NCBI GenBank assembly: GCA_048941015.1
Contig: JBHLNZ010000066.1
Span: 1 to 15,834, forward strand
Length of the DNA: 15,834 bases
Direction: 5' to 3'
Source of the DNA: Promethearchaeota archaeon
GTDB taxonomy: Archaea; Asgardarchaeota; Lokiarchaeia; Sigyniarchaeales; SOKP01
The notes beneath the pieces are model-generated. The model was not told the DNA's origin, did not search any database, and was given only the letters and a program-made list of their open reading frames with translations. A program made the position numbers and the translations under genes. Positions 2,133 to 15,477 of this stretch are shown in pieces. The stretch's first letter is position 1, and each line of letters opens with the position of its first letter.

Positions 2133-3272
2133 TTATGTTCTTTCTAATTCCATCTCCCTGATTGCTTTTCCAGATCTGAATGGAACATCATCGACGCTTT
2201 CTCCTGCCGTATATTTAAATATTTCCTTAAATGCTTCATTTAATGACTGAAAGTATAGAGATAATGGTAAATGTTGTGGACAATTATTATCACAATTCCC
2301 ACATTCAACACATCGATCTGCTACATGAGCTATACGAGTAAGTTGATATGTTTCTTTATTAATTACTTTATCTTTTCTTTTCTGCTGAAGTATACAATCT
2401 ACACAATAACAAACGGGACATCCCCTAATACACATTCCACACATTGTGCATGCTTGAAGGCGTTCAAGCTTTTCTGTTTGAGAAAGTTTATCCCATTCTT
2501 CTAAATCTTTGGCTCTTTTCTCAATTGCTTTTTGCTTTATTGCCTTTACCATATCATCTTGTTTAGTTTTGATATCATTAGGAAGGCTTTTTTTAGCTAT
2601 ACCCGATTTTTCTAATAAATCATTTCCTTTATCAGAATAAACCTTTAAGATTATTTCATCAGAATTGATAGGAATTGCTAAGTCACTAATACCTAAGTCA
2701 GCTACCACTGGAATTTTTCTCAGACATCGAGAACAGTTTTCAGCTATATCTAAACTTACCTCTTTAGTTTTACCATCCTTTAAAAGAAGGACTAATCCCT
2801 TATCACCAATTTTTTCCTTAACTACTTGTGTTAGATCAAGATCTTTTACTTTTTTCATTTCACGTGAGGCATTGATAATCATTCCCCGATCCTCAAACGC
2901 GATTATAAAAAGATTCTCTAGGTTTATCTGTTTTATCTTTACTAACTCAATAATCGCTCTGGTATCACATGGCCGAGCAATTAGTCCCACTTTTTCTTTT
3001 AATGCCCCATCAACAGATTTATGCAAATATTTAGCTGCAGAATCTGTTCTCGCATAACCATAAGAAATTAGGTTGGTTAGCGGAAAACCTGAAATATCTT
3101 CAGGTTTACTATATAATTTAGGAGTTACTGTAAAACGATCTTCTTCATTTGTTTTTTTATCAATTCTCGTTTCTGCTCCGATGATCTTATCAACAACTTT
3201 TTCTTTTAAAAGAGTTGCTAATAGCTTCGGAAAATCTTCTACTTTTATTAAGTAATCTGCTATTGCATCCAT
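2133..3272 (-). CDS. FdhB/FrhB-family (F420-dependent dehydrogenase beta subunit-like) Fe-S protein
   Basis: Motifs ARPCDTRAIIELVK, NCSRC, CTMCGMCIRGCPVCYCVDC and RIAHVADRCVECGNCDNNCP match the methanogen FdhB architecture. Confidence 0.85.
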   Translation of the reverse strand: MDAIADYLIKVEDFPKLLATLLKEKVVDKIIGAETRIDKKTNEEDRFTVTPKLYSKPEDISGFPLTNLISYGYARTDSAAKYLHKSVDGALKEKVGLIARPCDTRAIIELVKIKQINLENLFIIAFEDRGMIINASREMKKVKDLDLTQVVKEKIGDKGLVLLLKDGKTKEVSLDIAENCSRCLRKIPVVADLGISDLAIPINSDEIILKVYSDKGNDLLEKSGIAKKSLPNDIKTKQDDMVKAIKQKAIEKRAKDLEEWDKLSQTEKLERLQACTMCGMCIRGCPVCYCVDCILQQKRKDKVINKETYQLTRIAHVADRCVECGNCDNNCPQHLPLSLYFQSLNEAFKEIFKYTAGESVDDVPFRSGKAIREMELERT

Positions 3273-3380: not shown

Positions 3381-3453
3381 ATGTGTTTTATGGTGCTCCC
3401 ATTTCTTCAACTGAGCTCTCATTTTTTCAACTCAGTATCATTAGTTAACACAT
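3381..3453 (-). promoter_or_regulatory. SECIS element, eukaryote/Lokiarchaeota-type
   Basis: Minus-strand RNA reads AUGUGUU-AACUA-AUGAU-ACUGAGUU-GAAAAAAUGAG-AGCUCAGU-UGAA-GAAAUGGGAGCACCAUAA-AACACAU. This gives a 7-bp helix I, an AUGA/GA core, an 8-bp helix II and an A-rich apical loop. It starts 6 nt after the stop of a gene with two in-frame UGAs. Confidence 0.85.
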
Positions 3454-3459
3454 TAATTT

Positions 3460-3921
3460 TTAAGCTTTAGCTTTCGCTTTAGCTTCGTCTTTTTTTGGTG
3501 TGCCGCTTTTTGGTCTTAAAGGACTAGGACCTAATTCGCGAATTGTTTTATCAAATTCCGTTGCTTCTTTTTGAAATTTCTGACCTTCAGCTGCGGTACA
3601 GTACCCGAACTTCAATCTTTTTTCACTAAGCCCCATAGATTTTAATACTTCTTTAAGATATTCTACTTGACGATATGCAAAATAGTTACCCGTCTCATAA
3701 TCGCATTCTTTTGGGTATCATCCAATAATCATAACGCCATCAGCACCTCGTCCGAAAGATCTCATTACTACATCGTCGCCTACTCTGCCTGTGCAAGGTA
3801 CTAAAATAGTTCTTATCGATGATGGATATTGTGCGCGAATTGTTCCAGCCATATCAGCGGAACCATAACCTCATTTCCAACAGAGAAATGCAATAATCTT
3901 AATATCTTCTTTTTCTGCCAT
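3460..3921 (-). CDS. mvhD: MvhD/VhuD [2Fe-2S] subunit; selenoprotein with two Sec residues (U17, U68); 153 aa
   Basis: Manual translation: MAEKEDIKIIAFLCWK-U-GYGSADMAGTIRAQYPSSIRTILVPCTGRV...GADGVMIIG-U-YPKECDYETGNY...RLKFGYCTAAEGQKF...ELGPSPLR...AKAKA*. TGA at 3873-3871 and 3720-3718 align with MvhD Cys positions. Stop TAA at 3462-3460. Missing from the ORF track. Confidence 0.95.
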
Positions 3922-3928
3922 TTTTTTC

Positions 3929-3934
3929 CACCTC
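3929..3934 (-). promoter_or_regulatory. Shine-Dalgarno site of mvhD
   Basis: GAGGTG 7 nt upstream of ATG 3921, inside the 14-nt hdrA-mvhD spacer. Confidence 0.7.
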
Positions 3935-3935
3935 T

Positions 3936-5912
3936 TTACTCCTCGATTGGTAATAACTCGTCAATTAAAGCCATATATTGATCATCTCTATAATATGTTA
4001 GTTCTATTGCTTTCGAAGGACAAATCGCTGCACACGTTCCACATCCTCGGCATCGGATTAAATCAACGACAATATTTCCTTTTTCATTCACAGATATTGC
4101 TGTATATGGACAGGATTCAATACATTTATAACATTTCGCACATCTCTCATCTGAAGGGGTTGCACGTATTAATTCCATAGTATACTCTCCCTTACTCATT
4201 GGAATGCCAGCTGTAGATGCCGCTCCTTTTGCTTGACTTACTGCTTTATCAATTTCTTTCTGTCCTTGAGCAGAACCACAGATATATATTCCTGGAACCT
4301 TAGTACTAATAGGATCAAGTCGAGCGTGATATTCTTTTAAAAATCCATCAGGACTTTTTTCCATGTTTAATACTCGAGCAATCTCCACAGTTCCTTGAGA
4401 GGGTAAAGATGCTGGTGAAGTAACAATCATATGAACTTCCATAGTTACTACTGTATCAGTCCCAACAGGTTCAAATTGAACAATTAAATTCTTTGTTAAG
4501 GGATCTTCTTCTACCTTTCCCACAAGACCTTTAACGAATATTATTCCGGCATCCCTAGATCTCCTATAATATTCTTCGTAATCCTTGCCCGCACATCTCA
4601 TATCAATGTAAGTACAGACAATTTGGGAATCAGGATACTCCGATTTTATTAGTTTTGAATTTTTTAAAGAGAGATTGCAGCAAATCACAGAACACCATGG
4701 ATTTTTATTTATATCTCGACTGCCTACACAGTTTATGAATAATATTTTTGTTGGTCGTTTTCCATCAGAAGGTCGTTTTAAGTGTCCAAAAGTGGGGCCA
4801 TTAGGAGCAATAATTCGTTCTAGCTGAATTTGATTGATTACATTATCATATTTTCCATAACCATAATCATCACCTTGATATAGGTCCCACCCGGTAGCAA
4901 CAATTATTGTTCCCACTTCAATTTCTTCTTCTCTATCTTGAATACTAAAGTCTATCGCATCCTCTTCGCAAGAATCAACACAAGCAAAACATTCCACACA
5001 AGACTGCCGTGCGATATCGTAAATTGCGGGTACAGCTTGAGCAAATGCAATGTCAATACATTTTCTCGCCGAAAGATTCTCATCGAAATAATTTGGTAAA
5101 TAAATCGGACATACTTCAGTACACGCACTACACCCAGTGCATTTAATTTCATCAACGAATCGTGTATGCCGTGTAACTTTCACTTTAAAATTTCCAATAT
5201 ACCCATCTACTTGAGTAACTTCACTTAGAGTCATAATCTCAATATTTGGATGGCGATTTGCCTCTAACATTTTAGGACCGAGAATTCATATCGAACAATC
5301 ATCGGTTGGAAACGTACGGTCAAGTTGGGACATACGGCCTCCAATAGTGGTATTTTTTTCAACCAAATAGACTTTAAATCCGGCATCACCTAAATCAACA
5401 GCAGCTGTTAATCCTGCAATACCGCCTCCAACAACTAGAGCAGCACGCTTAACAGGTACAGTCTTGGTTGGTACATCCTCTAAAAGTCTTGCTCTAGAAA
5501 TACCTGCTTTGATAAGTTCAACTGCTTTCTGAATCGCTTTTTCACGAACTTCAGGAGCTTGATGAACGAAACTACAATGTTCTCTGATGTTAACAAACTC
5601 CAAATATCTTGGAGGTAAACCTGCTTCGCTTAGAATAGCATGAAAGACTGGTTGATGTGTTTTAGGTGTACAAGCCGCGACAACAATTCTTTCAAGTTTA
5701 CTTTCTTCAATTTGTTCTTTAATATATGAGCTTCCACCTTCAGTACACATACTTAAGTATTCGAATGCTTTAACCCCATCTAATTTATTGAGCTCTTCTA
5801 CAATCCGTGGTACATCCAAAATTCCAGCAATGTTAATACCTCAGCGACACACAAATACGCCAACAATGGACTTTTTAGCTTCATTATTGTCCTTGGTCTG
5901 TTTTTCAGACAA
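3936..5912 (-). CDS. hdrA: Heterodisulfide reductase subunit A (flavin/Fe-S, electron-bifurcating family); selenoprotein with two Sec residues (U24, U209); 658 aa
   Basis: One continuous frame from TTG 5912: MSEKQTKDNNEAKKSIVGVFVCR-U-GINIAG...VAACTP...NIREHCSFVH...GGGIAG...DRTFPTDDCSI-U-ILGPKMLEANRHPNI...CVGSRD...WCSVICC..., with inserted and C-terminal ferredoxin domains. TGA at 5843-5841 and 5288-5286. Joins track ORFs 5286..5819 and 3936..5270 in frame. Confidence 0.95.
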
Positions 5913-5918
5913 TATTTA

Positions 5919-5923
5919 CACCT
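5919..5923 (-). promoter_or_regulatory. Shine-Dalgarno site of hdrA
   Basis: AGGTG 6 nt upstream of TTG at 5912, supporting a start upstream of the first UGA. Confidence 0.65.
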
Positions 5924-6298
5924 TTGATTATATATCCTCCTAATTAGTTAAGAGTTTTTTTATCTTATTCATTTAATCTATTGTAGGTTATACAATAATT
6001 TTATGATCTTGTAAATAGTTCTTCTTATTAAAGTTCAATTGTTATTTAATTTGATTTAGTGCTTTTTAAAATCGGATAATATATCATTATTTTTTAAATA
6101 TCATCTCGACAAAATTTAAATAAATAAACTAGATTGACACTGTTATGATACGGAATTATTTCATTAGACAAATCCAGTTAACTTAGTAATTGAATTCTTA
6201 CTATATTTTTGAAAATTTTATATATTTTAATTGGTTAATTTTTATCTAACAAATCTTAATCTCGATATATTTTTTATTTAAATCAGAAAAGGATCTTT

Positions 6299-7000
6299 AT
6301 GGAAGAAAAAACAGAAAATGAGAATTTTCAAAAGACCAAACAAAAACTCTCTGACTTATTAAAAAGAAGACCACCCCAAGGACAGTTTCGAGACCAATTA
6401 TTTTGGCTAGTTGATATAATACATGTTTGTAAGGCGAGTGGAAATCTATTCTTAATGCAAGAAGCTAAACTTATGGAAAAAGCTTTAAATAATCTCTCTG
6501 AATTCTTAAAGACAGGTGATACTCAAGTATTAAATGATGCAACTAAACACGTTGAACAATTTGCTCGTATTGTGAAAGCAATAGCCACTGGTGGTTTAGT
6601 TGAATTTAATGTATTTTTAAGTTATGCTACCAGAGACAATGATTTTTTCAGAATCGCGGAAACGGCTAGACGGTTGGAAGAATATCCTGAAATTACAAAG
6701 GTATTTTATTGGGAACAAGACAGTGGTCAAAATATAATCGAATATATGGAAGCAAATCTTGAAAGATCTAAGGTTTTTGTCCATTTCTGTTCTCAACATT
6801 CTAAAACTTCAAAATCGGTCAAACTAGAGCGGGAAGCTGCAATACAATTAAATCAAGAAGAAAGAATAAGAATTCTTCCAGTATTTGAAAATCCTTCTGA
6901 TATCCCATTACTCATAAAACCCTACTTAGGTGTTGAATATAATCCTAACGATTTTGAGGGATTTATTGAAAATCTTTATAGAGAAATTTTACGGAAATAA
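6299..7000 (+). CDS. TIR-domain protein (C-terminal TIR_2) with an uncharacterised helical N-terminal region
   Basis: FNVFLSYATRD, VFYWEQDSGQNIIEYMEANLERSKVFVHFCS, SKSVKLEREAA and RILPVF follow the TIR beta/alpha pattern. Confidence 0.85.
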   Translation: MEEKTENENFQKTKQKLSDLLKRRPPQGQFRDQLFWLVDIIHVCKASGNLFLMQEAKLMEKALNNLSEFLKTGDTQVLNDATKHVEQFARIVKAIATGGLVEFNVFLSYATRDNDFFRIAETARRLEEYPEITKVFYWEQDSGQNIIEYMEANLERSKVFVHFCSQHSKTSKSVKLEREAAIQLNQEERIRILPVFENPSDIPLLIKPYLGVEYNPNDFEGFIENLYREILRK

Positions 7001-7037
7001 TATAAATTTTCTTTAGCATAAAAATAATTGAATTATT

Positions 7038-8222
7038 ATGAATTCTTTTACTTTAGACCACGTCAATAATTTCGTTTTAAAAAAAAATCATTTAACTAAC
7101 GATTCTAAAACTGAGAATATTCTTCAAATTGTAGAAGATTTATGCGGATTACACGCAACCGGTACTTTAGAACCTTATATTCAACTTTTTATAAGAAGTA
7201 ATAATTTTGAAAAGCAAGATTTAAATCGAGAACTCTACGAGAAAAATTCTTTAGGAAGAATACGAGGAATGCGAAAGACTTTGTTTATAGAAGTGAAAGA
7301 AATGATACCAATCGTATATAATGCCGTTAAATATTTAACAGATAGTCTCGAAAAGAAGTACTTAGAATACCGAAATGTCTCAATAGAAGAATATAAAAAA
7401 ATATCAACAGAAATCTTAAACTTATTAAACCAAAATGAAATGTCCACGTCTCAAATAAAGAAAACATTAAACTCTCAAAAGAATATCTCTGCAATTGTAT
7501 CAGTAATGTGTGATAGAATGGAATTAATACGAGGAAGACCCTTAAAAAGTTGGAAGGATCGAAGACTCCTTTATGCTCCTTTTAAAAAATATTTTCCTAA
7601 TATGGATCTTGGAAAATATACAGAAGAACAAGCTTTAGAACTTCTAATTCATAAGTATATTAAAACATATGGTCCATGTACAGAAAATGATATTGTTTGG
7701 TGGACTGGAATAACTAAAGGAAAAGTTAATAATGCTCTTCATAATTTAACAAGTAATATTCAAAAAGTTCACATCGAAACTCTGAACCATATATTCTATA
7801 TAAACAATATTGATATCAACAAACTAAACAATAATATTTCAATACATCAGAGTCATGTTAACTTATTGCCAATTCTTGATCCTTATGTTATGGGATACAA
7901 AAATAGAGAGAGATATATTCAATCAAAGAACTATGGTTATATCTTTGATAGAAGTGGTAATGCAACATCTACTATTTTATTAAATGGAAGAATTATTGGT
8001 GTCTGGGATATTTTAGAGAAACCTTATCCTAAGATTAAGCTTCTTCTCTTTGATTTTGTAGAAAAACAAATATTAGAAAAGATAAAGAAAGAAGCTAAAT
8101 GTATAGGAAGATTTATTATAGGGGACGATGTGCAAATAACAGAATGCGAAAGAATGCTTCCTTTATCTAAAAGAACAGCTGGAGGCTTTATGACACCTTT
8201 AAAGGATTCAGAGACTATGTAG
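7038..8222 (+). CDS. AlkZ/YcaQ (HTH_42) family winged-helix DNA glycosylase-like protein
   Basis: GLHAT, RGMRKTL, YIKTYGPCTENDIVWWTG, LLPILDPYVMGYKNR and ILLNGRIIGVW motifs, and a length of 394 aa. Confidence 0.85.
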   Translation: MNSFTLDHVNNFVLKKNHLTNDSKTENILQIVEDLCGLHATGTLEPYIQLFIRSNNFEKQDLNRELYEKNSLGRIRGMRKTLFIEVKEMIPIVYNAVKYLTDSLEKKYLEYRNVSIEEYKKISTEILNLLNQNEMSTSQIKKTLNSQKNISAIVSVMCDRMELIRGRPLKSWKDRRLLYAPFKKYFPNMDLGKYTEEQALELLIHKYIKTYGPCTENDIVWWTGITKGKVNNALHNLTSNIQKVHIETLNHIFYINNIDINKLNNNISIHQSHVNLLPILDPYVMGYKNRERYIQSKNYGYIFDRSGNATSTILLNGRIIGVWDILEKPYPKIKLLLFDFVEKQILEKIKKEAKCIGRFIIGDDVQITECERMLPLSKRTAGGFMTPLKDSETM

Positions 8223-8705: not shown

Positions 8706-9728
8706 TTATCTATTTTTATATTGTCTCTCATAATATTTTAAATACTCTTTAGTTATTACATTTTCTAACCACTTTGTATTAGAAATATACCATTCAACAG
8801 TCATTTTTAATCCCTTTTCAAAATCTACTTCAGGTTTCCAATGTAACTCTTTTGTTATTTTATCGTGATTCATTGCGTATCTTAAATCATGACCTGGTCT
8901 ATCTTTTACAAATTTTATTAATGATTGGGGTTTATCTAAAAATTTTAATAACTTATCAACCAATTTAATATTAGCAATCTCTGAATCTCCTCCTATATTG
9001 TAAATCTCTCCAATTCTTCCTTCTATTAATACTTTTAGAATAGCTTTGCAATGATCTTCTACGTAAAGCCAATCTCTCACATTAATTCCTTTACCATAAA
9101 CGGGTAAACTTTTGTTGTTCAAAGCATTGTTAATCATTAGGGGTATCAATTTTTCTGGGAATTGGAAAGGTCCATAGTTATTTGAACAACGAGTAATATT
9201 TACAGGAAGGTTAAAACTCTTGTAATATGACCTCACTAAAAGATCGGCAGAAGCTTTACTTGCAGAATAAGGACTATTCGGTGCTAATTGATGATTCTCG
9301 TCAAAAGGAGGATCAGTAAAGTTTAAAGATCCATAAACCTCGTCCGTAGATATTTGAAGATATTTCTTAATATTATTTTTTTTCGCAGAGTTTAATAAAC
9401 TTATTGTCCCTGATATATTTGTATCACAAAACAAAGAAGGATTATTAATTGAACGATCAACATGGGATTCCGCAGCAAAATTTATGATATAATCTATATC
9501 GTTCTTGCGAATGATCTCATCAACAGCCTTAAAATCACATATATCCATTTTAATGAATTTGTATTGATTAGGGTGCTTTTCTTCAATATCTTTCAGATTT
9601 TCAGGATTTCCCGCATATGTTAATTTATCTACATTAATAACTTTAAAATCTACATTAGATTCGAATAGATATCTTATAAAATTACTTCCGATAAATCCCA
9701 TCCCGCCAGTAACAAGACAGATTTTCAT
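8706..9728 (-). CDS. rfbB: dTDP-glucose 4,6-dehydratase
   Basis: VTGGMGFIGSNF, DKLTYAGN, FAAESHVDRSI, STDEVYG, PYSASKA, NNYGPFQFPEKLIP and DRPGHDLRY. Confidence 0.97.
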   Translation of the reverse strand: MKICLVTGGMGFIGSNFIRYLFESNVDFKVINVDKLTYAGNPENLKDIEEKHPNQYKFIKMDICDFKAVDEIIRKNDIDYIINFAAESHVDRSINNPSLFCDTNISGTISLLNSAKKNNIKKYLQISTDEVYGSLNFTDPPFDENHQLAPNSPYSASKASADLLVRSYYKSFNLPVNITRCSNNYGPFQFPEKLIPLMINNALNNKSLPVYGKGINVRDWLYVEDHCKAILKVLIEGRIGEIYNIGGDSEIANIKLVDKLLKFLDKPQSLIKFVKDRPGHDLRYAMNHDKITKELHWKPEVDFEKGLKMTVEWYISNTKWLENVITKEYLKYYERQYKNR

Positions 9729-10044
9729 AATATCATTGACTCATTAAATTAATTTATTGCTATTAATATTGCTTCAATTTAATTTCCTAAAGCATATAAA
9801 ATTATAATCAAAGGTTTTTCTTAACACTTATTAATGACTTAAAGGAATAATATTATCATTTTAACCATATTATTTCTTTTAATCAGTTGCTATGCACTTA
9901 TATTAGCGCAAGTGATAATTTCTCCGATAATTAGGATACTTGTATTTCTGGTAAATTCCGTGGTCACTCCCACTTATATCATCTTTTAATTATAGTTGTT
10001 TTTAAAATGAGAATTTTTTTTTAAAGCTATTATTTTTGTTATTC

Positions 10045-10911
10045 TTATTCGTCGGAAATCCTTTTTAGGTACTTCCCATAATCTGTGTTTGATATGGTAT
10101 CTGCGATCTTTTGCATATCTTGTCGAGTAATATATCCTTTATTATAAGCAATCTCTTCGATACATGCGATATATAGGCCTTGTCGTTTCTGTATTGTTCC
10201 CACAAAATTGGAAGCTTCAAGTAATCCATCATATGTTCCCGTGTCAAGCCAAGCGAATCCTCTTCCTAAGAGTTGTACTCGCAATTTCTCCTTTTTAAGG
10301 TATTCTTTAAGCAAATCAGTTATTTCAAGCTCCCCTCTTGGTGATGGTTCTAAACCCTTTGCAATATCTACAACCTCCTCGTCGCAAAAATAAAGCCCGG
10401 GAATGGCATAATTTGATTTTGGATTGTCTGGTTTCTCCTCCAAGGATATAACTTTTCCGTTTTTATCGAATTCAATAATCCCAAATTCTTCAGGATTATT
10501 AACATAATAACCAAAAATTACTGCTCCTTCTTTTAACGAGGATGCTTCGATTAATACAGGTGTGAAACCTTGACCAAAAAAAACATTATCACCAAGAATA
10601 AGAGCAACCTTTTCATCAGCAATAAATTTTTCGCCAACAATAAAAGAATCTGGCAGCCCACGAGGTTCAGATTGAATCTTATAAATAAATTTAAGACCCA
10701 CCTTACTTCCGTCTCCCAGAATCATTTTGTAATAATTTATATGCTGTGGTGTTGAAATAATAAGAATTTCTCTAATACCAGCAAGCATTAGCACAGATAA
10801 CGGGTAATAGATCATCGGTTTGTCATAAATAGGAATAAGATGTTTACTTATTGTTTGTGTAATCGGATAAAGCCTAGAGCCACTTCCTCCTGCTAAGATG
10901 ATTCCTTTCAT
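10045..10911 (-). CDS. rfbA: Glucose-1-phosphate thymidylyltransferase
   Basis: MKGIILAGGSGSRLYP, PIYDKPMIYYPLS, EEKP, PSPRGELEITD and GRGFAWLDTGT. AGGTGG RBS upstream. Confidence 0.97.
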   Translation of the reverse strand: MKGIILAGGSGSRLYPITQTISKHLIPIYDKPMIYYPLSVLMLAGIREILIISTPQHINYYKMILGDGSKVGLKFIYKIQSEPRGLPDSFIVGEKFIADEKVALILGDNVFFGQGFTPVLIEASSLKEGAVIFGYYVNNPEEFGIIEFDKNGKVISLEEKPDNPKSNYAIPGLYFCDEEVVDIAKGLEPSPRGELEITDLLKEYLKKEKLRVQLLGRGFAWLDTGTYDGLLEASNFVGTIQKRQGLYIACIEEIAYNKGYITRQDMQKIADTISNTDYGKYLKRISDE

Positions 10912-11212
10912 ATTCCACCTTCTGATAAATTACAATTCCAGCTAATTTTTCACTTTTTATAGAAATTAAAGGTTTTATAACTTTTAAATTAGATTATGAT
11001 TCATAATTTTTGACTCCATATTTTATTTTCTCTAATATGTTTGGTAAAATGATAATAGGGGATTTCCAACCAATTGAAGTTATATATCTGTAAACTCATT
11101 ATGGAACTTGAATAGGAGAAGATCATTCCATCTTAAGAGTTTCTTGATTGATCAAAGTTTTTAAATTAGCTAAATCTAGATTATATAAAAAAGATTAAAT
11201 GGTTTATAATTC

Positions 11213-12346
11213 TTGAAAAGTATTCAACCTTTTAAAAAGCCAATTTACATCACGAGACCATTATTACCACCAATCAAATTGGTTTATAAAAAGTTAAAAG
11301 AAATCTGGAATTCTAAATGGTTAACAAATATGGGAAACCAACATCAAGAATTAGAATCTGCATTAATGGAATATCTTAATGTTCCTTTTTTAAGCCTTTT
11401 TTGCAATGGAACATTAGCACTTCAAATAGCTTTTAAAGCACTTAAATTAAAGGGTGAAGTAATTACTACACCATTTACATTTCCTGCTACAGTGAATGCT
11501 TTATATCAAAATAATTTAGAACCTATTTATTGCGATATTAAATTTGATGATTTTAATTTAAATCCAGAAATGATTGAGGAATTAATTACATCAAAAACAT
11601 CAGCAATATTACCTGTACATGTTTTTGGTAATCCTTGTAATATAGAACAAATTTCAAAAATTGCAGAAGATTGCAATTTGAAAGTAGTTTATGATGCTGC
11701 TCATTGTTTTGGTGTTAAATATAACAATAAAGGAATTGGAAATTATGGTGATATAAGCATGTTCAGTTTTCATGCTACTAAGATATTTCATACTCTAGAG
11801 GGAGGTTGCCTTACTTACAATAACCAAGAATTTAAACAACAATTATCTCTCTTAAAAAATTTCGGAATTAAAAACGAAGAAGAAGTAATTCTTCCGGGAA
11901 CTAACGCTAAAATGAATGAGTTACAAGCAGCAATTGGACTCTTAAATCTAAACTTAGTTGAAATGGAAATTAAGAAGCGGAAGAATTTATCATCTATTTA
12001 TCGAGAAAATCTAAAAAACATTGAAGGGATTAAATTTTTCGATGAAAAAAAAGATGTTAAGCATAATTATCAATATTTTCCAATATTAATTAATGAGAGT
12101 GAATTTAAAGTTAATAGAGATTATGTTTACGAGTTTTTAAAAAAATATAATATTTTCTCCCGGAAATATTTTTATCCATTATGCACTGACTATAGCTTTT
12201 CAAAAAAAGAAGAAGAATACAAAATTCCAAATGCGAGAAAAATTGTGAATCAAATTTTATGCTTACCATTATATGGTGAATTAACAGGTGAAAATGTTGT
12301 GAAAATTTGTGATATACTGTTATATTTACAAAACAATTCGAATTAA
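11213..12346 (+). CDS. DegT/DnrJ/EryC1/StrS PLP aminotransferase, VioA-like (dTDP-4-amino-4,6-dideoxy-D-glucose transaminase)
   Basis: IYITRPLLP, NGTLAL, TTPFTFPAT, YDAAHCFG, SFHATKIFHTLEGG (PLP lysine), NAKMNE and RKYFYP. Confidence 0.9.
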   Translation: MKSIQPFKKPIYITRPLLPPIKLVYKKLKEIWNSKWLTNMGNQHQELESALMEYLNVPFLSLFCNGTLALQIAFKALKLKGEVITTPFTFPATVNALYQNNLEPIYCDIKFDDFNLNPEMIEELITSKTSAILPVHVFGNPCNIEQISKIAEDCNLKVVYDAAHCFGVKYNNKGIGNYGDISMFSFHATKIFHTLEGGCLTYNNQEFKQQLSLLKNFGIKNEEEVILPGTNAKMNELQAAIGLLNLNLVEMEIKKRKNLSSIYRENLKNIEGIKFFDEKKDVKHNYQYFPILINESEFKVNRDYVYEFLKKYNIFSRKYFYPLCTDYSFSKKEEEYKIPNARKIVNQILCLPLYGELTGENVVKICDILLYLQNNSN

Positions 12347-12382
12347 ATTAAAATCGAATCTAAAAATTGGAAATAGAATAAA

Positions 12383-13084
12383 ATGCCTATGAAACTTGGG
12401 ATAATGCAACCGTATTATTGTCCATATATTGGCTATTGGCAGTTAATGAATGCAGTAGATGAATTTGTTGTATATGATAATATTAAATATACAAAAAGGG
12501 GATGGATTAACAGAAATCGTTTCTTACAAAATGGTAATGACGCTTTCTTTACTATTAACTTGAAAAAAGATTCAGATTTTCTAGACATAAAAGATAGGAT
12601 AATATCTAATACATTCGATAAAAAAAAAATGCTTCATTTATTTGAACTATCATATAGAAAAGCCCCATTCTTCAATGAGACAATATCGTTGTTTAAAAGT
12701 ATTTTATTCTATGATGAGACAAACCTTTTTAAATATATTTATCATTCAATAAAAAAAATCCGCAAATTTTTAGCTATTGAAACAAAACTGATAATATCTT
12801 CAGAAATTGATATAAACCATAATTTAAAATCTCAAGATAAAGTTTTAGCGATTTGTAATAATCTTAGAGCAACAGAATATATAAATCCAATCGGAGGGTT
12901 AGAGCTTTACTCAAAAGAAACATTTAATAAGCAAGGAATTGAATTAAAATTTATAAAATCAAAACCAATTGAATATACACAATTCAAAAATGAATTTATT
13001 CCATGGTTGTCTGTTATAGATGTAATGATGTTTAATTCAAAAGAAGATATTTATAAATTTTTAAACCAGTATGAATTAAAATAG
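12383..13084 (+). CDS. WbqC-family protein (putative glycyl transfer to an amino sugar)
   Basis: IMQPYxxPYIGYWQL, YDNIKYTKRGWINRNR, YINPIGGLELY and F.PWLSVIDVMMFN. Confidence 0.92.
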   Translation: MPMKLGIMQPYYCPYIGYWQLMNAVDEFVVYDNIKYTKRGWINRNRFLQNGNDAFFTINLKKDSDFLDIKDRIISNTFDKKKMLHLFELSYRKAPFFNETISLFKSILFYDETNLFKYIYHSIKKIRKFLAIETKLIISSEIDINHNLKSQDKVLAICNNLRATEYINPIGGLELYSKETFNKQGIELKFIKSKPIEYTQFKNEFIPWLSVIDVMMFNSKEDIYKFLNQYELK

Positions 13085-13094
13085 CACTTATAAC

Positions 13095-13538
13095 ATGAAT
13101 ATTGAATATAAAATCGGAGTGGGTTCTCAGAATGAAATTTACCTTCACTTATTAGATTGTGACAAATTTTTTATTCCAAAGCTAAGTGAAAAGATTAATA
13201 TTTCTGAATATTCAGAAAAAATATTTAATAAAGCAATTAATTTTGAAGCTTGGGATAATGAGAGATTAATTGGCTTGTTGTCAATGTATATTAACGAGGA
13301 AGACACTTCATTTGGATATATAACAAATATTAGTATCATAAATGAATATAAAAATAGAGGAATTGCATCAAATTTATTAAAAAAGTGTATTAAATATTCA
13401 AAGGACATTAATCTCAATTGGATTAGTTTAAAAGTAGATACAAAAAATGTTTCAGCGGTTAATTTATATAATAAGTTCAATTTTATTAAAGAAAAACATA
13501 AAAATTCTTCAAGTTTTTTAAAGTTAGAATTAATTTAG
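13095..13538 (+). CDS. GNAT-family N-acetyltransferase
   Basis: YITNISIINEYKNRGIASNLL (acetyl-CoA motif A) and NVSAVNLYNKFNF. Confidence 0.88.
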   Translation: MNIEYKIGVGSQNEIYLHLLDCDKFFIPKLSEKINISEYSEKIFNKAINFEAWDNERLIGLLSMYINEEDTSFGYITNISIINEYKNRGIASNLLKKCIKYSKDINLNWISLKVDTKNVSAVNLYNKFNFIKEKHKNSSSFLKLELI

Positions 13539-13549
13539 GATAATTAATA

Positions 13550-14509
13550 ATGTTTAGTTGGAGAAAATTAGGTAGAATTTTTAACCCCGCAGATGTGAAG
13601 GGTAAGTTTTGGCTGAATGAGTATTCACAAGCTCCAGCTACATTGATATTTGATAATTACGTAAGAGTTTATTTTAGTTGTCGTTCTAAACGAGATAAAT
13701 TAGGACAAATGGTAAGTTACTCCGCCTATGTAGATTTAGATAGAAAAAATCTATTCAATATTTTAAATATTGCCCAAGAACCTGTTCTTAAACTTGGAAA
13801 GAGGGGTTGTTTTGATGAGTTTGGTACTTTTTCAATGTCAGTTATAAAAAAAAATAATGAGGTATGGGGATATTATGCAGGTATGACTAGATGTGAATCA
13901 GTTCCATTTAATACCGCAATTGGTGTAGGGATAAGTAGAAATGGTGGAGTAAAATTTGATAAACTGGGAGATGGACCAATTTTATCCTATTCTCCAGACG
14001 AACCATTTATTATTAGCGGACCTAAGATACGTAATTTTAAGGACCATTATTACTTATTTTATCTTTGTGGTCGTAAGTGGTTATTAGTAAATGGAAATCC
14101 TGAAATGTTAGTGAAAATTCGAATGGCTAAATCAACCGACGGATTAACTTGGGTAAAAAATAATAGAAATCTTATCTCAGACGAAATTGACAAAAATGAG
14201 TGCCAAGCAAGTCCGGATGTATTCTATAAAAACAGGAAATATCATATGTTTTTCTGTTATTGGAATCCTACTACATTTAGAGAGAGTAAATCAAGAAAAA
14301 TTGGATATGCTTATTCAGATGACTTGATCAATTGGACTAGAAATGATTTTAAAGCGGGAATTGATGTATCAGAGGAAGGCTGGGATTCTGAAATGGTAGC
14401 TTACCCCCATGTATTTGAATTAGATGGTAAAATTTATATGCTTTATCTTGGCAATGAAGTCGGACGTTATGGATTTGGATTAGCTGAACTCGTAGGTGAA
14501 CTCAAATAA
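13550..14509 (+). CDS. Five-bladed beta-propeller, glycoside hydrolase-like protein (paralog 1)
   Basis: Repeated blade motifs such as SxDGLxW, AYSDDLINW and WDSEMVAYPHV, resembling GH32/43/130-type propellers. No signal peptide visible. Confidence 0.72.
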   Translation: MFSWRKLGRIFNPADVKGKFWLNEYSQAPATLIFDNYVRVYFSCRSKRDKLGQMVSYSAYVDLDRKNLFNILNIAQEPVLKLGKRGCFDEFGTFSMSVIKKNNEVWGYYAGMTRCESVPFNTAIGVGISRNGGVKFDKLGDGPILSYSPDEPFIISGPKIRNFKDHYYLFYLCGRKWLLVNGNPEMLVKIRMAKSTDGLTWVKNNRNLISDEIDKNECQASPDVFYKNRKYHMFFCYWNPTTFRESKSRKIGYAYSDDLINWTRNDFKAGIDVSEEGWDSEMVAYPHVFELDGKIYMLYLGNEVGRYGFGLAELVGELK

Positions 14510-15477
14510 TGAACTGGAAAAAATTAGGAAAAATATTTGATCCTTTAGCCTATGAGCTATCAAGCAAATACTTTGGATTTGCTCAATCACCTCAAGCAAT
14601 AGTCTTTGATGATTTTATAAGAATTTATTTCTCAATAAGGAAATTGGATTTAAAAAACAAATTTATTAGTCATATAGAATTTGTGGATATGAGTTTGGAC
14701 TTCAAAACTGTTTTAAATACATCAAAAAGAGAAGTAATTTCTGTTGGTGAATTGGGATGTTTTGATGAACATGGTATCTTTCCATTTAGTCCAGTTAGAA
14801 TAAATGATATGATTTACGCGTATACAAGCGGTTGGTCAAGGAGAAAATCAGTTTCAATTGACAACAGTATTGGTCTTGCAATAAGTAAAGATAATGGTTT
14901 AACTTTTAAAAGATATGGTAATGGACCAGTGTTAACTTCATCACTATACGAACCTTTCTTAATTCTTGATGGGTTTGTACGAAAATTCAACAAAAAATTT
15001 TATATGTTTTACATTTTCGGACAGAAATGGTATAAAGATAATGAAATAGAAGAACCCGAAAGAGTTTATAAAATTGGATATGCAATTTCAAATGATGGTA
15101 TAAATTGGAAAAAGATGAATAGATGCATTATCGAAAATAAAATTGATGAAAATGAATCCCAAGCATTACCAACCGTTATAAAAATTGGCGAGCGTTATCA
15201 TATGTATTTCTGTTTTCGTCACATGATTGGTTTTAGAAAAGAAAGAGAAAAAGCATATCGTTTAGGATATGCTTATTCAGATGATTTAATTAATTGGATA
15301 AGAGATGATGATAACGTTGGAATTACTACAACACCGGGTGATTGGGATTCTTCTATGATGTGTTATCCAAATCTCGTTGAAGTTAATGGTAAAATTTATT
15401 TATTATATAATGGTAATGAGTTTGGTAAATTCGGTTTTGGAGCTGCAAAATTAATGGGAGTAGATAATGAAAGATAA
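14509..15477 (+). CDS. Five-bladed beta-propeller, glycoside hydrolase-like protein (paralog 2)
   Basis: Colinear with the upstream gene (WKKLGKIF, GCFDEHG, EPF, YHMYFC, GYAYSDDLINW, GFG). TAATG stop/start overlap. Confidence 0.72.
   Translation: MNWKKLGKIFDPLAYELSSKYFGFAQSPQAIVFDDFIRIYFSIRKLDLKNKFISHIEFVDMSLDFKTVLNTSKREVISVGELGCFDEHGIFPFSPVRINDMIYAYTSGWSRRKSVSIDNSIGLAISKDNGLTFKRYGNGPVLTSSLYEPFLILDGFVRKFNKKFYMFYIFGQKWYKDNEIEEPERVYKIGYAISNDGINWKKMNRCIIENKIDENESQALPTVIKIGERYHMYFCFRHMIGFRKEREKAYRLGYAYSDDLINWIRDDDNVGITTTPGDWDSSMMCYPNLVEVNGKIYLLYNGNEFGKFGFGAAKLMGVDNER

Follow-up and report, generated by a model that had tools for sequence, protein, structure and literature searches.

In the genome of a Promethearchaeota archaeon (NCBI GenBank assembly GCA_048941015.1, 3.59 Mb, 29% G+C), the contig JBHLNZ010000066.1 (here C5), whose entire 15,834 bp were analyzed and are referred to as the window, carries on its minus strand the neighboring genes hdrA, encoding a homologue of heterodisulfide-reductase subunit A, and mvhD (or vhuD), encoding a protein of the FlpD family. 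These genes very probably form a Lokiarchaeial selenoprotein pair, in which four UGA codons are recoded to selenocysteine (Sec) via one shared 3' selenocysteine insertion sequence (SECIS) element of the lokiSECIS type on one mRNA. Both genes are intact solely when the four UGA codons are read through (Table 1). Under translation table 11 they are split into pieces of 177 and 444 amino acids and of 58 amino acids, consistent with the statement of an initial annotation, made from the letters of the sequence, that gene callers fragment both genes. The positions of the four TGAs, the TAA stops and the 14-nt spacer with its ribosome-binding site, all taken from the same annotation, proved correct when read directly from the sequence. 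This spacer leaves no space between the cistrons for a 3' untranslated region (UTR) or a SECIS element. Elsewhere in the window, TGA is the normal stop of two neighboring genes, and no other gene contains an internal TGA.

Homology passes through all four TGAs, as had been claimed, and the read-through products are full-length HdrA and MvhD. HdrA matches the PDB chains 9sfi_A (E value of 2e-206 across residues 17 to 654) and 5odc_A (1e-189) and holds an FAD/NAD-binding and several 4Fe-4S Pfam domains. MvhD matches Pfam family PF02662 (2.4e-43) and the chains 8rvu_F (5.5e-35), 9sfi_K and 5odc_D, the three chains spanning E values of 1e-33 to 1e-35. The alignments with 9sfi_A and 8rvu_F also bear out the claim that all four TGAs fall on cysteine positions, codon 209 of HdrA falling on Sec197 of 9sfi_A. 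This residue, an X at position 197 of the structure, is Sec197 of Methanococcus maripaludis HdrA (PMC13518236), and by alignment Sec209 is the predicted equivalent of the methanogen HdrA Sec/Cys197. According to the summary given in PMC9012536, the crystal structure of the methanogen complex shows Cys/Sec197 as a ligand of the partner HdrA's N-terminal [4Fe-4S] cluster, and a cryo-electron microscopy study from 2026 places the residue at position 197 in a Cys-Sec pair near FAD (PMC13518236). It is conceivable that Sec24 and Sec209 meet at one cluster. Together, the two products would constitute a flavin-based electron-bifurcating HdrA-MvhD module.

The same genome encodes the complete archaeal/eukaryotic Sec pathway. 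The gene for tRNA-Sec was found both by Rfam (RF01852, 61.4 bits, over the cut-off) and by ARAGORN (tRNA-SeC, anticodon tca). It is directly adjoined by the gene for SepSecS (E value of 5.8e-111), and the gene for SelB is located on the same contig at a distance of 3 kb; the best PDB match of SelB, over the full length, is the archaeal SelB 4ac9 (2e-90), with human eEFSec as the next. SelD contains one in-frame TGA, and the best PDB matches of PSTK are the entries of Methanocaldococcus (M. jannaschii) PSTK (5e-27). PSTK and SelB fall under the curated cut-offs of NCBIfam and were identified by these best PDB matches.

To follow the four codons through related genomes, we assembled 25 orthologous loci from an MvhD search of contigs from a set with one genome per species. 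All are metagenome-assembled genomes (MAGs), most of which carry the label Promethearchaeota or Promethearchaeia, as Lokiarchaeota are now called; counts of 26 below include the window. In all 25 loci, hdrA lies directly upstream of mvhD, and identity to the window proteins ranges from 51 to 90% for HdrA and from 56 to 87% for MvhD. Across this range, TGA occupies all four Sec columns wherever these are covered, that is, in 24/24 sequences at HdrA codon 24 and in 26/26 at each of HdrA codon 209, MvhD codon 17 and MvhD codon 68. Some relatives carry one or two extra TGAs in hdrA, at the columns of Cys56 and Cys81 of the window, in agreement with the “five possible Sec positions” of Mariotti et al. 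2016 (PMC4989117). The stop codons of the two genes are distributed differently: that of hdrA is TAA or TAG in 26/26 loci, and that of mvhD is TGA in 6/26. In none of the 26 loci is the spacer shorter than 8 or longer than 19 nt, and in nearly all of them it has AGAGG at its start. The TTG start of hdrA recurs in most of the orthologues that are aligned to the first codon, with ATG in one. Ahead of this start, the hdrA leader (5913-5960, minus strand) holds a pair of motifs resembling Shine-Dalgarno sequences (GGAGG near -28, AGGUG near -10), which likewise recur in most orthologues, a few carrying other leaders.

Three of the loci, from uncultured-archaeon MAGs, show a peculiarity in mvhD, namely a 30-nt insertion immediately 5' of the first Sec codon (W-[10 codons]-K-U-G; L030:3540-3580, L031:3537-3577 and L033:3540-3580). 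It is bordered by the direct repeat AAUGAGG and folds as a hairpin of 7 to 9 bp whose sequence is unique to each genome and whose arms vary compensatorily among the three; the L031 copy has an in-frame TAA. We considered a bulge-helix-bulge intron, to which the L031 fold is vaguely similar but the L030 and L033 folds are not, and a ribosome hop over the insertion, which is inconsistent with the reading frames; both were rejected.

The element that follows mvhD was identified from its published description. According to Mariotti et al. 2016 (PMC4989117), a lokiSECIS features AUGA 5' of a stem of nine positions, an 11-nt loop and GA on the 3' side; the first five loop bases are A-rich, the last is G, usually after A. 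The element is located just past the selenoprotein coding sequence and, in HdrA-VhuD pairs, solely after VhuD. Every one of these features of sequence and position is present at 3407-3441. The core begins 18 nt past the mvhD stop, which places it approximately 2.40, 1.85, 0.43 and 0.28 kb from the four UGAs. Among the orthologues, the element lies 12 to 20 nt after mvhD in 22/25 loci as located by script and at a similar distance, judged by eye, in the remaining three. Its layout of 4+9+11+9+2 nucleotides is shared by 21/25 orthologues and by three paralogous elements of the same genome; one orthologue has a 12-nt loop and three were aligned by hand. Over 29 aligned elements, no variation affects the UGA of AUGA or the second A of GA, and loop positions A21-A23, A28 and G29 are likewise constant in alignment A2, the loop being A-rich with an AG end. 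Helix II is supported by covariation: compensatory double changes occur at 7/9 of its pairs among the 26 sequences, a level reached by 0/500 shuffles, and sliding the partner strand by 1 to 3 columns lowers pairing from 90% to 29-49%. A scan of the window with Rfam at E values of up to 10, eukaryotic SECIS models included, gave no SECIS match of any kind; this null is uninformative, since lokiSECIS is not a curated family.

Because Rfam holds no model for the element, we trained a covariance model (R1) on 26 orthologous and three paralogous elements and ran it with filters off. Naive scans of the genome for an AUGA-stem-loop-GA pattern had returned many A+T-rich false positives, so that in this genome of low G+C content they were replaced by R1 and homology-anchored searches. 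In the window, R1 gives a single strong match (3403-3446, minus strand, 66.4 bits), a score obtained by construction, as the window sequence is part of the training set; the informative part is that everything else stays at or below 17.6 bits. The next-best match, at this score, lies on the opposite strand in a sugar-metabolism gene, and within hdrA and mvhD no match exceeds 10.7 bits. The locus thus contains exactly one lokiSECIS. Genome-wide, R1 found three other Sec hdrA-mvhD pairs, on contigs C44, C137 and C131, each with one SECIS following mvhD, and one further element on contig C20. With these results, the initial annotation was right in naming the element after mvhD, about 2.4 kb from the first UGA, as the sole convincing SECIS, and the checks that it had proposed, for Sec machinery in the genome, for conservation of the TGAs in relatives and for internal SECIS copies in hdrA or mvhD by covariance model, all came out in its favor: tRNA-Sec, PSTK, SepSecS, SelD and SelB are present, TGA is kept at all four columns, and R1 detects no internal copy.

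Outside hdrA-mvhD pairs, lokiSECIS-like elements were seen at C20:3781-3824 and C31:43545-43579 (both minus strand). No clear gene stands out upstream of the C20 element, where frames are short and contain several TGAs. In addition, in one Promethearchaeota MAG (9R3_44; L124:840-960) a C44-type mvhD precedes, in this order, the 5' half of a SECIS of its own type (ACCGAAUAGAAUGA) and an entire element of the C5 type, the type of the window. The arrangement resembles the outcome of an exchange of SECIS elements between paralogous loci or of a chimeric assembly.

If the single element serves all four codons, one mRNA would carry hdrA, mvhD and the SECIS, as suggested by a spacer that fits only a ribosome-binding site. 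SelB with Sec-tRNA(Sec), recruited via the 3' element, would then reach ribosomes that pause at one or another of the four UGAs, and recoding would extend across 0.28 to 2.4 kb, with two of the UGAs beyond a cistron boundary. The usage of stop codons would follow from the same geometry: with only 18 nt to the element, the mvhD stop would be too near for recoding, so that UGA is tolerated there in relatives, and the hdrA stop would be distant enough to be recoded and is, presumably for this reason, never UGA. The shared 3' SECIS put forward by the initial annotation is supported by the computational tests; that it is shared across the cistron boundary we infer from the anatomy of the locus and from comparison.

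Alternatively, the hdrA UGAs, or even each of the UGAs, could use local signals within the coding sequence, similar to bacterial SECIS elements or to the hairpins of eukaryotic selenocysteine codon redefinition elements (SREs), with the 3' element serving mvhD only. This would be attractive in that hdrA lacks its own 3' UTR and in that 2.4 kb is far above the experimentally shown distances of archaeal SECIS elements; moreover, R1 sees lokiSECIS-like shapes only and would miss other kinds. However, shuffled sequences fold as well as the 66 nt that begin at each UGA (z of +0.40, +0.01, +0.78 and -0.77), and synonymous-codon diversity in the 20 codons past each UGA (0.50 to 0.58 among 24 to 26 orthologues) is undiminished relative to the gene medians of 0.51 and 0.57, so that neither local folding nor synonymous diversity gives a sign of bacterial-type or SRE-type elements. 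Windows of depressed diversity occur only at the extreme N terminus of hdrA and in the low-complexity C terminus of mvhD. Similarly, when Mariotti et al. (PMC4989117) ran RNAz on the coding sequences with 200-nt flanks, downstream elements alone emerged. Since a non-UGA stop of hdrA in 26/26 loci is also what would be expected if a distal SECIS acts on all upstream UGAs, we regard local signals as very unlikely. No less unlikely are separate mRNAs for hdrA and mvhD, produced by a promoter in the 3' end of hdrA or by processing in the spacer, with the hdrA UGAs decoded in trans or otherwise. Sequence does not prove co-transcription, and internal promoters are common in archaeal A+T-rich DNA, but a spacer of 8 to 19 nt that starts with AGAGG in nearly all of the 26 loci is typical for coupled cistrons, and the order hdrA-mvhD-SECIS is invariant both among the genome's four paralogous pairs and in published descriptions. 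Finally, hardly any credence can be given to the idea that the TGAs are true stops, in pseudogenes, split genes or misassembled sequence, or that UGA is reassigned genome-wide, even though table 11 does fragment the genes. The identical TGA columns recur in every covering MAG locus (25) in spite of the divergence of the proteins, solved structures have Cys or Sec at the same columns, and a dedicated tRNA-Sec with its pathway is encoded; given in addition the ordinary TGA stops of the two neighboring genes and the lack of internal TGAs in the other genes of the window, neither pseudogenes nor assembly errors nor a reassigned code can account for the TGAs.

Several points nevertheless weigh against four UGAs being served by one terminal element. 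Co-transcription, the 3' end of the mRNA and the actual insertion of Sec are all inferences. Past the SECIS, approximately 115 nt of A+T-rich sequence lead to a conserved FrhB-like gene on the same strand, which suggests that the SECIS may be intercistronic in a four-gene operon rather than part of a terminal 3' UTR. Furthermore, an element of different structure inside hdrA would evade R1 and is opposed by the synonymous-site and folding checks only, and the 3' element itself was identified by a published descriptor and by our own model R1, Rfam being without a model that recognizes it.

Conservation around the lokiSECIS extends beyond the published 35-nt hairpin. Among the 26 sequences it continues through a further helix (helix I) and ends abruptly past it, delimiting an element of 73 nt whose minimum free energy (MFE) fold is a three-way junction (-17.7 kcal/mol, z of -3.76) composed of helix I, an arm with a kink-turn and helix II, and a side hairpin on the 3' side. 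The stem of the side hairpin (AUGG-N5-CCAU) is invariant in these 26 sequences, helix I is 92% paired, and the U-A pair of a short 2-bp stem at the base of the arm becomes U-G in five sequences and C-G in one (C5-type alignment). In the predicted fold, this 2-bp stem, the AAU bulge and the G.A/A.G core would form the classical layout of a kink-turn, followed by the first helix II position, which is often unpaired. The same architecture can be drawn from unrelated sequences for the three paralogous elements and for those on C20 and C31 (six with that of the window), although for the latter two helix I and the side hairpin were read from the sequence and the computed MFE folds differ.

Further evidence comes from 75 relatives of the C44 type. 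Here helix I pairs CCGA with UCGG, with one compensated GCGA/UCGC variant, and the side hairpin reaches at least 5 bp in 81% of sequences compared with 22% of shuffled tails, its stem variants being compensated as well (ACCAU/AUGGU, ACCUU/AAGGU, AGCUU/GAGCU and CCCGU/AUGGG). RNAalifold called helix II alone on the alignment of these 75 sequences (A3); since a linker indel of 1 nt moves helix I and the side hairpin between columns, each sequence was parsed separately. Counts for the C-stem of the kink-turn are noisy in this family because “AAUGAAUGA” misled the register in about 12 sequences, and we make no strong claim for the 2-bp stem past the C5-type alignment. For the C137 type, the species-level genome set contains three relatives of mvhD, too few for covariation. 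Taken together, we tentatively suggest, as a possibility that we would not yet call probable, that the functional lokiSECIS is a three-way junction of about 73 nt, consisting of helix I, the kink-turn arm with helix II, and a 3' side hairpin with a GC-containing loop. If so, the side hairpin could be a second contact for a protein or the ribosome, standing in for the missing SBP2, and would set the Asgard element structurally apart from the eukaryotic SECIS. The side hairpin is mentioned neither in the main text of Mariotti et al. 2016 or Huang et al. 2024 (PMC11227280), nor in what a full-text literature search returned, and helix I and the side hairpin around the core may thus be one addition to the published picture.

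Table 1. Coordinates of the hdrA-mvhD selenoprotein locus and its downstream genes in the window. U in protein motifs denotes Sec; paired strands are given 5' strand first.
Feature	Position	Strand	Description
hdrA	3936-5912	minus	TTG start, TAA stop; open reading frame with TGA read as U, 658 aa
HdrA UGA-Sec codon 24	5841-5843	minus	VFVCR-U-G; N-terminal Fe-S domain; Cys in 9sfi_A
HdrA UGA-Sec codon 209	5286-5288	minus	DDCSI-U-ILGPK; canonical Sec site; X (Sec197) in 9sfi_A
hdrA-mvhD spacer	3922-3935	minus	14 nt, AGAGGUGGAAAAAA; contains GAGGUG ribosome-binding site
mvhD (vhuD)	3460-3921	minus	ATG start, TAA stop; TGA read as Sec, 153 aa
MvhD UGA-Sec codon 17	3871-3873	minus	FLCWK-U-GYG; second Cys of CNWC in 8rvu_F
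MvhD UGA-Sec codon 68	3718-3720	minus	MIIG-U-YPKEC; Cys of GGCHIGDC in 8rvu_F
Full conserved element	3381-3453	minus	73 nt; predicted three-way junction around the SECIS core
Helix I	3453-3447 with 3387-3381	minus	AUGUGUU with AACACAU
2-bp stem	3444-3443 with 3406-3405	minus	C3444-G3405 and U3443-A3406; followed by bulge AAU (3442-3440) and G.A/A.G kink-turn core
lokiSECIS core	3407-3441	minus	AUGA-U-ACUGAGUU-GAAAAAAUGAG-AGCUCAGU-U-GA
AUGA of core	3441-3438	minus	
Helix II	3437-3429 with 3417-3409	minus	Nine positions: U.U (3437/3409) and eight Watson-Crick or G-U pairs (3436-3429 with 3417-3410)
Apical loop	3428-3418	minus	11 nt, GAAAAAAUGAG
GA of core	3408-3407	minus	
Side hairpin (3' side)	3402-3399 with 3393-3390	minus	AUGG with CCAU
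FrhB/FdhB-like Fe-S protein gene	2133-3272	minus	379 aa, TGA-free; Pfam PF04432 and Fer4
Poly-ferredoxin-like gene	1313-2080	minus	255 aa; Pfam Fer4 families; ordinary TGA stop

Of the two genes downstream of the pair, the FrhB/FdhB-like gene may be co-transcribed with hdrA-mvhD: it is kept 142 to 219 nt past mvhD in 23/25 orthologous loci, and the poly-ferredoxin-like gene is found downstream in several of them too. On the other side of hdrA, and divergent from it, 6299-8222 (plus strand) encodes a TIR-domain protein (PF13676, E value of 2e-14) and an AlkZ-like DNA glycosylase (PF06224, 2e-37). Further along, the window contains an ordinary sugar-nucleotide/glycan cluster (8706-15477) with an RmlB-like 4,6-dehydratase, an RmlA-like nucleotidyltransferase, a DegT aminotransferase, WbqC, a GNAT protein and two weakly glycoside-hydrolase-like proteins.

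The arrangement described here has been published since 2016, so that the locus adds an instance and not a concept. A claim of novelty is not supported: both the configuration and the inference, down to the word “polycistronic”, were already given by Mariotti et al. 2016 (Mol Biol Evol, PMC4989117), who reported that HdrA-VhuD pairs of Lokiarchaeota share one lokiSECIS over approximately 2 kb. Huang et al. 2024 (ISME J, PMC11227280) extended this to Asgard archaea, cataloguing 1,439 Asgard selenoprotein genes, and found that hdrA and frhD are always neighbors and almost all share the same eukaryotic SECIS (eSECIS)-like structure. What our analysis contributes is that published regularities hold on independent genomes, namely that the hdrA stop is never UGA, that the SECIS lies 12 to 20 nt past vhuD and that there is no internal copy. 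It also shows that such loci are recognizable from raw sequence, and it yields a well-defined element of 73 nt with covariation support, which could be placed in the existing Methanococcus reporter system. What makes the biology remarkable is that, in the archaeal lineage nearest to eukaryotes, a single RNA element apparently recodes as many as six stop codons spread over 2 kb and two cistrons.

Compared with the known Lokiarchaeota HdrA-VhuD pairs, we see no essential difference apart from the conserved helix I and 3' side hairpin added here. Gene order, the very short spacer, an HdrA with multiple Sec residues including the canonical position, two Sec residues approximately 50 codons apart in VhuD and an hdrA stop that is never UGA are all shared, as are the single element right after vhuD (AUGA, 9-bp stem, 11-nt A-rich loop, GA) and the proposal of one polycistronic mRNA recoded over about 2 kb. 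Methanococcales and Methanopyrus have orthologous proteins, hdrA-vhuD synteny, the HdrA Sec197 that corresponds to position 209 here and a VhuD with two Sec residues under one 3' SECIS. They differ, however, in that each gene has its own SECIS of the euryarchaeal type (GAA_A bulge), in that HdrA has one Sec and in that sharing across cistrons has not been proposed (PMC4989117). With eukaryotic SECIS elements, and SELENOP in particular, the locus has in common the kink-turn core of AUGA and GA, the unpaired adenosines of the apical loop, the 3' location, and the predicted action on several distant UGAs with its requirement for a minimal distance. In contrast, eukaryotic mRNAs are monocistronic, SELENOP has two SECIS elements and the stem is shorter in the locus described here; SBP2 is not known in Lokiarchaeota (Mariotti et al. 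2016, PMC4989117).

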